Assembly (NCBI GenBank): GCA_964016885.1
Contig: OZ024743.1
Coordinates: forward strand, 217,992,001 to 218,056,000
Length of the DNA stretch: 64,000 nucleotides
DNA from: Eledone cirrhosa
Lineage: Eukaryota
Direction: 5' to 3'
Shown here: positions 41,432 to 54,995 of the stretch, one piece after another
Layout: each line of letters starts with the position of its first letter
How positions within the stretch are numbered: position 1 is the first letter of the stretch
The notes under the pieces: model-generated
Database searches by the model: none
What the model was told of the DNA's origin: nothing
What the model saw: only the letters and a program-made list of their open reading frames with translations
Translations under genes and position numbers: made by a program

Positions 41432-41481
41432 TCTTGTTACTCTGGAGTTTCGCCTGTTTATCATTTGATCATCAGACAAGA
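41432..41481 (-). ncRNA. Type I hammerhead ribozyme motif (stem II decayed)
   Basis: Minus strand: TCTTGT-CTGATGA-(17 nt)-GAAAC-TCCAGA-GTA-ACAAGA, with a 6-bp stem I. Confidence 0.65.
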
Positions 41482-41485
41482 TATT

Positions 41486-41528
41486 TTTGTCTGACGACCC
41501 TGTGATAAACAGGCGAAACTCCAGAGTA
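41486..41528 (+). ncRNA. Type I hammerhead ribozyme motif, truncated at the cleavage triplet
   Basis: tttgt-CTGACGA-c-CCTGT-gataa-ACAGG-c-GAAAC-TCCAGA-GTA, then (CA)n. Confidence 0.6.
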
Positions 41529-41777
41529 CACACACACACACATATATATATATATATATATATATATATATATATATATATATGGATACCGATATATACA
41601 TTTATATATACATATATACATACATGCATTGTCACACATCTCCAAAAATATATATTTTCACACATGTATATACACAAAAGTACATTTTGACATCAACAGT
41701 TTTAGTATTAAATATGAAAGCACAACTCCTAAAATAAAAACACTCATCCTGATACGCACATATACATATATATATAT

Positions 41778-44524
41778 TAGGGTGTTCCAGAATCCCACAT
41801 TTTATACAAAAGTGTTTTTCTCTTAGCTCCCTATGTATTTTCTCATGCCATTTTGTATATTACAATTTATATTGTAATTTTGATTATTTCAGACTAATTT
41901 AAGCCTTGCCTAATAGTTGCAAATTGGCGGAATAATGGCGGAAACCAGTCGGCCTAGTTGTAGCTACTCGCTCCGTTGTGATGATCGAGAAATATGGCCC
42001 CTGGGGCAATATGTTATATCCTTTTCACCAAACAAAATACCAACAAAGGGGATGTTCTAAGATATTTCTTCTACCTGAAAGATGGTCCTATGAAACACGA
42101 ATGGCATGTGAGCTTCAATGGTGCTATTGCGGATAGGTTTGTGATGGAAGTAGTTAGTCAGTAGAAAAAAGCTGGTGTGTCGACTCAACGAAAAGACAAA
42201 GTGAAACTGAAAATTATGAACATGTACAGTGAATACAGAAATTTACAAAAAAAAACAAAGGTTATAAGTCAAACAAAGAAAAGGAATCACTATTTATTTC
42301 TGAATTGGATTCGTATTTCTACATTGCACATACTGATGCTGAAAAGAAAATTTTGAAAGACCGTCTTCGTGATAATGAACAGAAAATTGAAGATGCTACA
42401 TTTCTCGAACCCCTGCGTTGCCAGAAAAAAAGTATCTCTGGGTGCTGAAGACAAGGGTTACCAGAAAAAGGTATCTTCAAAGTTTAAGCGTGATCAGGTT
42501 AATGTGGCTCGTCGAGAGTCAGAGAACCATAGAAAGCGTTTGTCAGGATCTGTAGCAGCACAACTTCCGCATAATGAACTGAGTGATTCAAGTTCAACCA
42601 ATGATGAAACTGAAGATGAACAGGATCCTGAATTTAAGGCCTCAAACCCACCCAGAGACAGCTCAAAGTCAGTCAAGAAACGAAAGGTCCAGCTGGAACA
42701 CCCAAAGAATCCATTTCAAAATCCAAAAGTTTCTCTAATGGCTGATCGTTTAAAGCTGACACTGAGCCAGAGAACAGCATTTATGGCATCGATTATTTCT
42801 GAGGGTGGGACTGACATAGACCCCACAACTGTCTCCAAGAATAGTGGCAGACGTGCAGCTAAGAAGATCAGAACTGTGGGGGCTGAACACATAAAGGAAA
42901 AATTTGCTGTACCAGACTTTGTTACCTTGCATTGGGATGGCAAAATAATTCCTGGTGACCACGAGAGGCTAGGTGTGCTAGTTGCTGGAACCCCGGACTT
43001 CAGAGAAGGTAAACTCCTCGGTGTTCCCATAATTCCTGATGGCACTGGAACCACCCAAGCCAAAGCATCATTTGATCTTGTTAAAGATTGGAATGTTGAT
43101 GGGTCTGTGGTAGGCTTGGTCTTCGACACAACTGCTTTGAATTCTGGATGGAAAAATGGTGCCTGCGTGAAACTAGAAGAGATGCTCAACAAAAATGTGT
43201 TTTATTTTGCTTGTCGGCACCATGTCATGGAGTGTATCTTGTGTGCAGTGTGGTAACAACTATTTGGAGCAATGTCCAATCCAGATACCCCAGAGTTCAA
43301 AGAGCTCAAAAGAGAATGGGTGTCACTCACGGACAAGACCAACTTTAAAACATTGAACATTGTCGACCGGAGACTCAAGTTCCTCCAAGATTTGCTGACA
43401 TTCGGCGATGGGAAAATGAGTTCTCTTCCACGGGACGACTACCGAGAATGTGCCGAGTTGATGTTGATCTTGCTTGGTGTCACCCCTCCTCGTGGAATTC
43501 ATTGGATGCTGCCTGGTGCACATCATAATGCTCGGTGGATGTCCACAATCATCTATAGTGCAAAGATGTATGCATTTGGTGAGCGACTCAATTACGATCA
43601 AGCTAAAATGGAAAATTTGTGCCGGATCTGTATGTTCAATGCTCTGTTCTACGTGCGATAGTGGCTGAGAGCAGTCAAGTGTGCTGATGCACCATCCAAT
43701 GACCTTCAATTCTACGTGGAGTTGACACAGTACAGTAAGGTTGACAGAGATCTCTCGCAGGCAGCCACTACTGCTCTGAGCAGGCATCTTTGGCACCTGA
43801 CGGAGGAAGCCATTCCGCTAGTGCTGTTTTCAAGTCGGGTCCAAGAGTCCGAGAAGAAACAAATAGCCCAACGTCTTGTCAAAACGAAAACGTCTGGGCC
43901 TCTCGACCGTGGAGCTCCATCATTTCCCGAGTTGAAGTCGTCCACGAAGCTGCTTCGTCTAGTTGGGAAGAAATCAAGGCTTCTGTTCGATCTCCTTGGT
44001 CTCGACGATACTTGGCTTGAGCTGTCAACTGCAACTTGGTCATCACAAGCGTCATATCAAAATGCCTGTGCTGTTGTTCACAATATCAAGGTAGTCAATG
44101 ATCTAGCGGAGAGAGCAGTCAAGTTGATAACTGATTTTGTTGCCATCACCAAGAATGAGGAGAAGTAGTGTGTTCTTCAAGTAGTCGAAGCTCATCGCCG
44201 CAAGGTCCCGGATTTCAAAAAAGAAACTCTGAAAAAAATATGACTGGAGTTAACTTAACTGAACTTGTTTCTTCTTTGTACGCCTTTATATTCAAAGGTG
44301 GTTTACTAAAATAAACAATTATTGTATGGTCATATTTGGTTTCACATTTTCATGATTTCATGCAACATAATCACACTTTCCACTATAATCACTATGATAT
44401 AGGCAAGGCTCAAAATAATTTATATTATACAAAATATATTTTATTTTACTAATTGGGGAATTTATAATGGGAGAATATACAGGGAGCGTTAGTATTGTGA
44501 CCTTGCTTTTTATGGCACACTCTA
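41778..44524 (+). mobile_element. hAT-superfamily (hATm-like) DNA transposon, full length, inactive
   Basis: Termini TAGGGTGTTCC ... GGCACACTCTA; subterminal inverted motifs (ctccctatgtattttctc / gagaatatacagggag and agccttgccta / taggcaaggct); ATATATAT on both flanks fits an 8-bp TSD. The hATm subfamily call is from motif recall. Confidence 0.8.
41935..44243 (+). pseudogene. DDE transposase pseudogene
   Basis: Motifs LHWDGK, VFDTTALNSG..GAC, ACRHH (CxxH), PRDDYRE, PGAHHNARWM, VVNDLAERAVK. In-frame stops at ~43254, ~43659 and ~44166 plus 5' frameshifts. Confidence 0.85.
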
Positions 44525-54008: not shown

Positions 54009-54425
54009 AACTGCAACAAACCATCAAACATTTACAAGAGTTACCTCCCTCACACCCTACCTAATCCTTTTTCTTAAATAAATTAAATATCACCCAGCAA
54101 GAATTGCTTCACCCTGTATATTAACTCTCTAAAAAGGGAAACCATATCAAACCTCAGGCCACCATTTGCCTCCTTCACGCAACCATGGTTCAACTAAGCA
54201 CTCTTGCTATATTAACACATTTTGAACTGCTTAACTTCAATGACTGTGCTTGTAAATAACATTATTTTTCCTTCCACATTGACTTTTTACGTTCCACATT
54301 ATTCTCGTCTTTTTTTCCTTTTTCTTTTTTTCTTTTTTCACTTCTTAAACCTTGGTTGTATATAATATTATTCTTTCTGCACCTTCAGTTTAACATGTGC
54401 GACACCCCACTAATACATTTCACTA

Positions 54426-54465
54426 TCATTTGATAATGCATATAAATGCTGAAACCGGTAATAGA
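54426..54465 (+). ncRNA. Minimal hammerhead motif, U3-A8 variant, in the PLE 3' pLTR
   Basis: tcat-TTGATAA-t-GCAT-ataa-ATGC-t-GAAAC-CG-GTA^ataga; ACCGGT palindromic stem III. Confidence 0.6.
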
Positions 54466-54785
54466 CAATAATTAAATAGATAAATAGATAAATAAATGCC
54501 ATTGTTAAATAATAAATAAATCAACTAATACCTTAACACTTCACACAAAGTAAAACATTTCGTTTTAATCATTTTCTAACCCAGAAAAAAGAGAGAGAGA
54601 AACAAAAAAGGAAAAAAATATATTTTTCTTCCTCATAATCGCCTCTTTCTCCCTGATTCCATCTATATATATATATATATATATATATATATATATATAT
54701 ATGTATGTGTGTGTGTGTGTGTGTGTGTGTGTGTGTGTGTGTGTGTGTGTGTGTGTGTGTGTGTGTGCGTGCGTGTGTGTGTGTG

Positions 54786-54995
54786 TATAGTGTATTTTGC
54801 AATACACTATGCTTAATTAAAAGCATTTCGCAGATATCTCCCCTGTTTGCTGAAAATTAAAGTAAGTGAGACTGTCACTACTCTAAAACAATAGCATAAG
54901 GTCTGCGAAATGCTTTTAATTAAGCATAGTGTATGGCAAAATACACTATATATACATTCATATATATATCGCTATTTCAGAGCACCACTTCTAAT
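54786..54995 (+). mobile_element. Solo half-unit of the 316-bp repeat family with an inverted 5' fragment
   Basis: 54835-54995 is the reverse complement of 47282-47442; 54786-54834 is an inverted copy of part of it. Confidence 0.8.

Follow-up and report, generated by a model that had tools for sequence, protein, structure and literature searches.

Penelope-like elements (PLEs) that carry an endonuclease (EN+) target (TA)n tracts and leave insertions with inverted 5' copies and a tail usually at one end (PMC8557442; here and below, statements on the published work cited refer to passages of those texts). Poseidon PAc, a PLE of Anolis, cuts and extends both strands in vitro, begins internally, at two positions bounding the tail, and does so without requiring hammerhead cleavage (PMC11167929). 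Mobilisation of animal retrozymes by PLEs has been argued from their co-occurrence and from the phylogeny of PLE pseudo-long terminal repeats (pLTRs) (PMC7229834; bioRxiv 10.64898/2026.07.22.740005). The way in which PLEs produce inverted, tailed insertions, the role of their hammerheads and the enzyme that moves animal retrozymes are all stated to be open questions (bioRxiv 10.64898/2026.07.22.740005; PMC11167929; PMC7229834; PMC8557442). We have analysed a window of 64,000 nucleotides of the Eledone cirrhosa genome (assembly GCA_964016885.1, contig OZ024743.1, positions 217,992,001 to 218,056,000, forward strand; coordinates below are those of the window), in which a first-pass annotation had described positions 41432..54995 as a hotspot of hammerhead motifs within a microsatellite-targeted PLE/retrozyme community, ribozyme cleavage defining the mobilised RNA. 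It is quite probable, judging from the sequence, that this 13.6-kb range is a (TA)n-rich pile-up of independent PLE and retrozyme insertions, the retrozymes having been copied in by a Penelope enzyme.

Elements of the locus

The range holds the following insertions, in which signed positions are counted from the predicted cleavage site (H17) and the two 3' end sites of a family are called short and long.

41405..41528, both strands: F1, head-to-head pair of short hammerhead arms (cores 41475, minus, and 41491, plus), both decayed; plus arm ends at H17
44785..45495, plus: F2 retrozyme, 1.4 units of 518 bp; abuts (TA)n with its 3' end, at the short site (+58)
45740..45795, minus: F2 fragment covering stem III to the short site; faces the F2 array tail-to-tail, with (TA)n between them
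46651..47026, minus: F3 retrozyme, 0.8 of a 486-bp unit; stem II of the hammerhead is long; ends at H17
47282..48083, minus: F4 retrozyme, 2.5 units of about 318 bp; U3-A8 hammerheads; abuts (TA)n with its 3' end, at the long site (+166)
48083..48111, plus: short inverted F4 arm (-6 to +22), joined directly to truncated PLE-A
48114..49970, plus: PLE-A, 5'-truncated within the GIY-YIG domain; long 3' untranslated region; minimal hammerhead; 3' end at about +90, abutting (TA)n
51049..54664, plus: PLE-B, reverse transcriptase (RT) and GIY-YIG in five broken frames (51770-53944); U3-A8 hammerhead; 3' end at about +200, abutting (TA)n
54787..54995, both strands: second F4 insertion, head-to-head, coreless; minus arm spanning +127 to +71, plus arm starting at +5 and reaching the long site

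About nine hammerhead motifs of about six families, and two PLE coding remnants, had been proposed for this range, and all were recovered. A type I descriptor (CUGANGA or UUGANAA, stem II, GAAA, self-complementary stem III, UH, stem I), together with homology to other genomic copies, finds nine of the nine motifs within 41432..54995. They sort into six families and include three pairs of same-family copies. Five lie in three tandem retrozymes (units of 318, 486 and 518 bp), two in the short inverted pair F1 and two near the 3' ends of PLE-A and PLE-B, which protein similarity confirms as the two coding remnants.

Core 41475, cleavage 41438, minus: F1 hammerhead, stem II damaged
Core 41491, cleavage 41528, plus: F1 hammerhead, 3' strand of stem I missing
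Core 44867, cleavage 44928, plus: F2 hammerhead, passes the strict descriptor
Core 45385, cleavage 45446, plus: F2 hammerhead, passes the strict descriptor
Core 46727, cleavage 46651, minus: F3 hammerhead, 3' strand of stem I missing
Core 47483, cleavage 47448, minus: F4 hammerhead, passes the strict descriptor
Core 47800, cleavage 47764, minus: F4 hammerhead, stem I damaged
Core 49854, cleavage 49881, plus: PLE-A hammerhead, 2-bp stem I
Core 54430, cleavage 54460, plus: PLE-B hammerhead, 2-bp stem I

Three of the nine copies are thus intact by the strict descriptor, four are damaged (41475, 41491, 46727 and 47800) and belong to families that are intact elsewhere in the genome, and the 2-bp stem I of the PLE motifs is the state of nearly all copies in both families. 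At family level, the type I core CUGANGA (or its U3-A8 form), GAAA and NUH with stems I-III is found in all six, and the descriptor bears out the earlier description of minimal type I hammerheads with palindromic stem III and U3-A8 variants. As 100 dinucleotide shuffles of the 13.6 kb give no strict hit, the nine motifs are not due to chance.

Covariance models gave a different picture: none of the nine motifs attains the gathering score of an Rfam hammerhead model, the best being Hammerhead_HH9 over 47425-47500 (F4; 26.1 of 52 bits, E 0.0014), and the F2 motifs have no Rfam hammerhead match. Ranking by E-value over the full window brought up mostly microsatellite miRNA models in Rfam, and a general repeat search fared likewise. 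In F3, 7 of 15 stem pairs are altered on both sides among six related sequences, with a core that is constant except for N7 and a covariation score reached by none of 500 shuffles, in a set that is small and, with four of the six chosen by descriptor, partly circular. Compensatory stem changes are also seen, judged by eye, in relatives of F2. Folding of single motifs supports F4 alone (z -5.4), the other seven giving z of -1.7 to +0.3, as expected for motifs with short stems. By sequence the nine sites are hammerhead ribozyme motifs, with self-cleavage predicted at H17. They resemble the minimal hammerheads of PLEs in being type I with a short palindromic stem III, an extra stem II nucleotide and a U3-A8 variant, and in occurring as opposite-strand pairs 100-700 bp apart and in many families per genome; several families here differ by a long stem II or a full stem III (PMC4209133).

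F2, F3 and F4 are short tandem units of low GC content (35, 38 and 34%, respectively) with one type I hammerhead each; both hammerheads of the F2 array are intact, with palindromic stem III. Their arms hold up to 3-6 complete head-to-tail units with nothing intervening, arrays reach at least 6 units (e.g. L035), and PLE protein queries find no match inside the F2, F3 or F4 units. By these features, F2-F4 are non-autonomous, retrozyme-like units matching the non-LTR retrozymes of animals, which likewise are short low-GC tandem units with one type I hammerhead, no protein and PLEs in the same genome (PMC7229834; bioRxiv 10.64898/2026.07.22.740005). The passages of these two sources describe no termini, inverted arms or microsatellite target, all three of which are found here. 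The F2 fragment at 45740..45795 is probably an insertion separate from the F2 array. The F3 copy ending at H17 is atypical, as 33 of 34 other scored F3 ends differ. Elsewhere in the sampled loci, F4 and an F3 relative lie in head-to-head orientation with a short TA spacer between them (L014:1972-2310), and an F3 5' end is joined at the stem III of fam15, a further abundant family (L090:1893-1970).

F1 shows no tandem unit in 30 loci, chosen solely by the part below the cut. Its long arms stop between -45 (the limit of the reference) and -2 in all 30. In many loci (L055-L280), the F1 arms break off immediately above stem I, close to a self-complementary stretch, as though the RNA had a defined 5' end there.

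PLE-A and PLE-B are, from their sequence features (RT, C-terminal GIY-YIG, Cys linker), EN+ PLEs. The GIY-YIG match in Pfam has an E-value of 1.6e-5, and the RT of PLE-B has 110 relatives (up to 57% over 93%), the named ones from bivalves and an octopus. For PLE-A, the RT is seen solely in other copies, as is a Neptune-type CX4CxxC linker. The 5' part of PLE-B contains a 75-bp degenerate tandem array (51424-51764). In PLE-B copies, the tail is set apart from the short end by an internal (AT)n of 8-25 units (L127, L137, L141, L144 and L145); the element therefore carries its own target repeat.

A third PLE, F6, had been missed by the first-pass annotation. It is represented by two insertions outside the range:

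55240..55399, minus: F6, Hydra-clade PLE, 3' end; core position 4 of its hammerhead fold is A
37277..37818, both strands: two-armed F6 insertion, long-site arm left and short-site arm right, both abutting (TA)n

F6 is very abundant and has near-identical copies, one with a 692-aa open stretch (in L309) containing DKT, RWR and CxCX5C, and is assigned to the Hydra clade by motifs (DKT, CxCX5C linker, (TA)n target), clade labels of the local PLEs being motif-based and not drawn from a tree. A4, where a hammerhead has U, is the family state, with stems I-III that can form, and the fold is filed as hammerhead-like and not as a type I hammerhead proper. It is the sole multi-locus core variant in an 800-kb scan, with 19 core-bearing arms in 600 kb sampled. 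This A4 is not mentioned in the relevant parts of PMC4209133, and PMC3088659 describes a natural U4C variant, the term U4A being absent from its passages. Long open reading frames (ORFs) of two different Hydra-type PLEs (L309:3480-5555; L312:6420-8501, minus) suggest that several such families have been recently active.

PLE-B and F6 have the insertion traits of EN+ PLEs, namely a terminal-repeat hammerhead, 5' truncation, an inverted 5' copy and a one-sided tail. Like the Neptune/Nematis and Hydra clades, the local PLEs combine RT and C-terminal GIY-YIG, a Cys linker, these traits and a (TA)n target; they differ by tails longer than 30-40 bp, by RWR in place of RWK, and by the non-canonical core of the Hydra element (PMC8557442).

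Insertion ends and arm pairing

The (TA)n target, the end positions, the pairing of arms, the read-through and the rare variants common to both arms were established directly on genomic copies. For F2-F4, these came from 77 loci (the best 20-30 BLAST matches per family, after removal of the overlapping L037, L042 and L095), and arms shorter than 28 nt or below 85% identity, as well as ends at locus edges, are excluded from the counts. Most 3' ends (104/127) abut TA. They cluster at two sites per family: +58 and +177 in F2, about +74-81 and +190 in F3, +140 and +160-173 in F4. Only one of the 127, that of the F3 copy in the window, falls within 10 nt of the cut, the two fixed sites lying 58-190 nt downstream. 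The 3' ends of PLE-A are at +90-94 in 20 of 20 copies and those of PLE-B near +200, and other families show paired distances to the first TA tract.

The two sites are divided between the arms of an insertion. Head-to-head pairs are present in 46 of the 77 loci (about 60%), with 33 long+short, 2 long+long and no short+short combinations and 11 with an end elsewhere; where both arms end at defined sites, long+short accounts for 33 of 35 pairs. The table of query arm against second arm ([[0,8],[25,2]]) gives a Fisher p of 2e-6, conditioned on the query-selected arm. F1 partner arms are short in 10 loci of 30, long in 1, other in 8 and lacking in 11. The same pairing is found in autonomous elements: all 10 adjacent partners of the Hydra PLE are short, among 24 loci, and in all three PLE-B cases the tail is present on only one of the two arms.

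Furthermore, of 35 second arms, which are unselected, 25 continue past the upstream cut. The two arms of one locus have in common 21 rare variants in 14,760 sites, compared with about 2 expected from between-locus rates. Sharing between arms is thus about ten times the between-locus level, and about equal to that of tandem units within one arm.

Several earlier statements on the ends have to be modified in this light. The first-pass annotation had called for a genome-wide tally of termini relative to H17; in the loci used here, 3' ends fall at two downstream sites, with a weaker excess of 5' ends near the cut, and cleavage as the definition of the mobilised RNA is not supported. Four ends had been placed at or near cleavage sites (41528, 46651, 48083 and 54835), and these coordinates are right: the first two are 3' ends at H17 and the last two are 5' junctions within 6 nt of the cut; both 3' cases are, however, atypical of their families. 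Of the (TA)/(CA) microsatellites said to embed the units, it is (TA)n that abuts the 3' ends, CA/TG being secondary. The idea of PLEs and retrozyme-like units that target (TA)n holds, but not as a local community.

Empty sites were sought with the idea in mind that the telomerase-like RT might itself write the (TA)n. An empty-site match was found for none of 75 insertions, and a wider scan gave no clean one among the matches listed; a target-site duplication would be hidden in (TA)n.

In twin priming of L1, both target strands prime, producing an inverted 5' part, and the RNA is divided between the two pieces. In the insertions described here, the two arms cover overlapping parts of the template and each has a fixed start; because of the overlap, simple L1-type twin priming was rejected.

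A possible insertion mechanism and its alternatives

In the mechanism that we favour, the PLE endonuclease would cut both strands of (TA)n. Each strand would prime reverse transcription internally, aided by a few A/U base pairs, on an uncleaved and probably circular RNA, one strand per site, and the two cDNAs would stop at variable points and then be joined. One template would serve each event, retrozymes being mobilised in trans, and the ribozyme would act in producing monomers or circles, not in setting the insertion ends. Clustering would result from common (TA)n targeting, including the tracts at the ends of earlier insertions. We infer double-strand cutting, internal two-site priming, a single circular template and trans mobilisation because a purified PLE extends both strands from two tail-bounding starts with cleavage dispensable (PMC11167929), and because autonomous PLEs of the same genome have the same arm pairing. 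As the pairing of F2-F4 arms matches that of two autonomous PLEs here, the retrozymes carry a PLE integration signature. PAc is alike in having two internal starts that bound the tail downstream of the hammerhead, extension of both strands and an AT-rich target (PMC11167929). Four direct head-to-head joints of a PLE with another family (F4 with PLE-A at 48112 in the window, F4 with another PLE in L006, and PLE-B with fam6 in L128 and L130) hint, in addition, at mixed templates.

A number of observations weigh against this mechanism. The F2-F4 locus set favours young, query-spanning copies, the second arms alone being unselected, and 11 of the 46 pairs have one end outside both sites. No inverted arm is found at 24 informative 5' junctions of PLE-A, a count that excludes 12 reference-limited loci and 7 running off the locus. 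The 5' ends are scattered, yet they show a 2.7-fold excess between -10 and +20 of the cut (27/125, p 3e-5); a minority of templates may have been cleaved linear RNA, or the palindromic stem III could be the cause. Likewise, 2 of 19 F1 partner arms end within H17 to +2. A single source locus, or gene conversion from one inverted arm to the other, could account for the variants common to both arms. Chimeric joints are scarce (besides the window's own, 1/31 unpaired F2-F4 junctions, 2/14 for PLE-B and 0/24 for PLE-A) and may have arisen by deletion. None of F1-F4 was matched to an autonomous partner. Finally, the starts of PAc lie close together, without strand preference and without homology to the target, whereas those here are 26-119 nt apart, one per arm, in A/U-rich motifs matching (TA)n, and on non-coding RNAs (PMC11167929).

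Linear, uncleaved transcripts explain the read-through as well as circles do, and the strongest alternative builds on this. PLE machinery would copy a linear transcript of a tandem array, and the one-sided tail would come from endonuclease resolution of an intermediate and not from a second priming site. This is somewhat unlikely, although several points favour it: arrays of 6 or more units are available as sources, F1, which lacks a tandem unit and stops about 45 nt above the cut, fits a linear RNA, the tail is ascribed to endonuclease-mediated resolution in PMC8557442, in vitro cleavage by PLE hammerheads is poor (PMC4209133), and among nine Xenopus retrozymes eight failed to cleave (bioRxiv 10.64898/2026.07.22.740005). 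On the other hand, tail ends coincide with RT start sites in vitro (PMC11167929) and the tails here are up to 119 nt long. The tandem units of one arm share rare variants as often as two arms do, as would be expected from one circle, but a homogeneous array would have the same effect.

That F2-F4 are terminal repeats of autonomous PLEs with unsampled coding parts is improbable. F6 did pass for a short non-coding repeat until longer copies revealed its PLE ORF, and Xenopus retrozymes resemble pLTRs (bioRxiv 10.64898/2026.07.22.740005); the uninterrupted head-to-tail units and the lack of PLE protein matches inside them argue against it. For F1, this explanation may still apply.

A bolder version of the favoured mechanism is possible, though less likely than not. 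The genome would be the densest known store of hammerheads (2 to 6 x 10^5, in dozens of families) and each two-armed insertion the work of one PLE complex on a single RNA, from two fixed sites, one per strand. The same complex would take retrozyme circles and PLE RNA, sometimes both, and the A4 element, one of the commonest carriers, would either have a new active core variant or prove that cleavage can be dispensed with.

The ingredients of these insertions are known, but no precedent was found, in the main texts of the non-subscription literature, for their scale, for a strict rule of one site per arm on non-coding retrozymes, or for the A4 core. The same texts, taken without supplements, yielded no paper on octopus hammerheads or on retrozyme termini, and the main text of a 2026 repeat annotation of Octopus vulgaris leaves ribozymes unmentioned in its passages (PMC13282606). 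The genome supplies about 10^5 insertions with exact ends in dozens of parallel families, specific start sites for which an in vitro PLE assay already exists, and a natural collection of many hammerhead variants.

Abundance of hammerheads in the genome and other features of the window

The assembly (3.0 Gb, 1,796 contigs) was sampled in 60 segments of 10 kb at fixed round coordinates, 51 of them on the four largest contigs (54% of the assembly), and compared with 20 segments of 10 kb flanking the window. Strict motifs number 43 in the 600 kb sampled (0, 0 and 1 in shuffles), 16 in the 200 kb of neighbours and 3 in the window; with homologues included, the figures are 97, 42 and 11. Bootstrap estimates for the genome, from which F6 is left out, are 215,000 strict motifs (115,000-340,000) and 484,000 with homologues (330,000-659,000), and these may run high, as the nine small-contig segments are poorer (4 strict, 12 in total). 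The sampled sequence contains at least 35 families with a stem I of 4 bp or more, five of them U3-A8. In comparison, about 5,000 retrozymes in a mussel and 120,000 in the axolotl, in two families each (PMC7229834; bioRxiv 10.64898/2026.07.22.740005), and 2,000-9,000 PLE hammerheads per genome (PMC4209133) have been counted. The number of candidates from a genome-wide sequence search (475-2,849) is not a copy number, because F6 gave 1,307 and yet occurs in 14 of the 60 samples. Further tandem retrozyme arrays occur in two sampled loci, L151 and L181, one with 5 motifs in units of 310 bp and one with 9 in units of 556 bp.

The density of the window equals the genome mean (11 in 64 kb, 97 in 600 kb). 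The 13.6-kb range itself has about 4 times the mean motif density, in the upper tail of the samples, and its best 10 kb holds 5 insertions, compared with 4 in 4 of the 60 samples and 5 in 1 of the 20 neighbours. Its TA content is 8.8%, the average being 4.5%, and across 80 segments insertions become more numerous as (TA)n content rises (rho 0.52, p 7e-7). The genome is saturated with hammerhead retroelements and the locus is ordinary; the hotspot reading is not supported. The combination of a local hotspot with insertion ends set by ribozyme cleavage is very unlikely, since the raised density of the range, the two window copies ending exactly at H17, the 5' excess, the F1 partner arms at the cut and the F1 long arms stopping within 4 nt of it (4/30) are outweighed by the average density of the window, by second arms that mostly pass the cut, and by 3' ends for which this is largely refuted. 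This genome also suggests that much of the 'unknown' repeat in such genomes is PLE-driven.

Two further hammerheads, found by descriptor or homology, lie outside the range:

56289..56353, plus: fam15 hammerhead
18407..18471, plus: hammerhead of a further family, fam5, U3-A8

Other features were noted in the window. A short TA-flanked repeat with an internal inverted repeat (50541-50720), present in 6 other loci, may hold the 3' half of a hammerhead on its minus strand. A decayed 2.75-kb element (41777-44530, plus), with short imperfect terminal inverted repeats, is inserted in TA; its broken ORF (42357-44168) presumably resembles a DDE transposase and has no Pfam match. A tRNA gene (2142-2215, minus; 66.6 bits), the sole Rfam gathering match in the window, is suggested by its anticodon loop to be tRNA-Ile. 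Finally, a non-LTR retrotransposon (58080-63474, minus) has RVT_1 in a 714-aa stretch (E 5e-27), with an endonuclease-like frame upstream of it, and also contains a frame that resembles ORF1.

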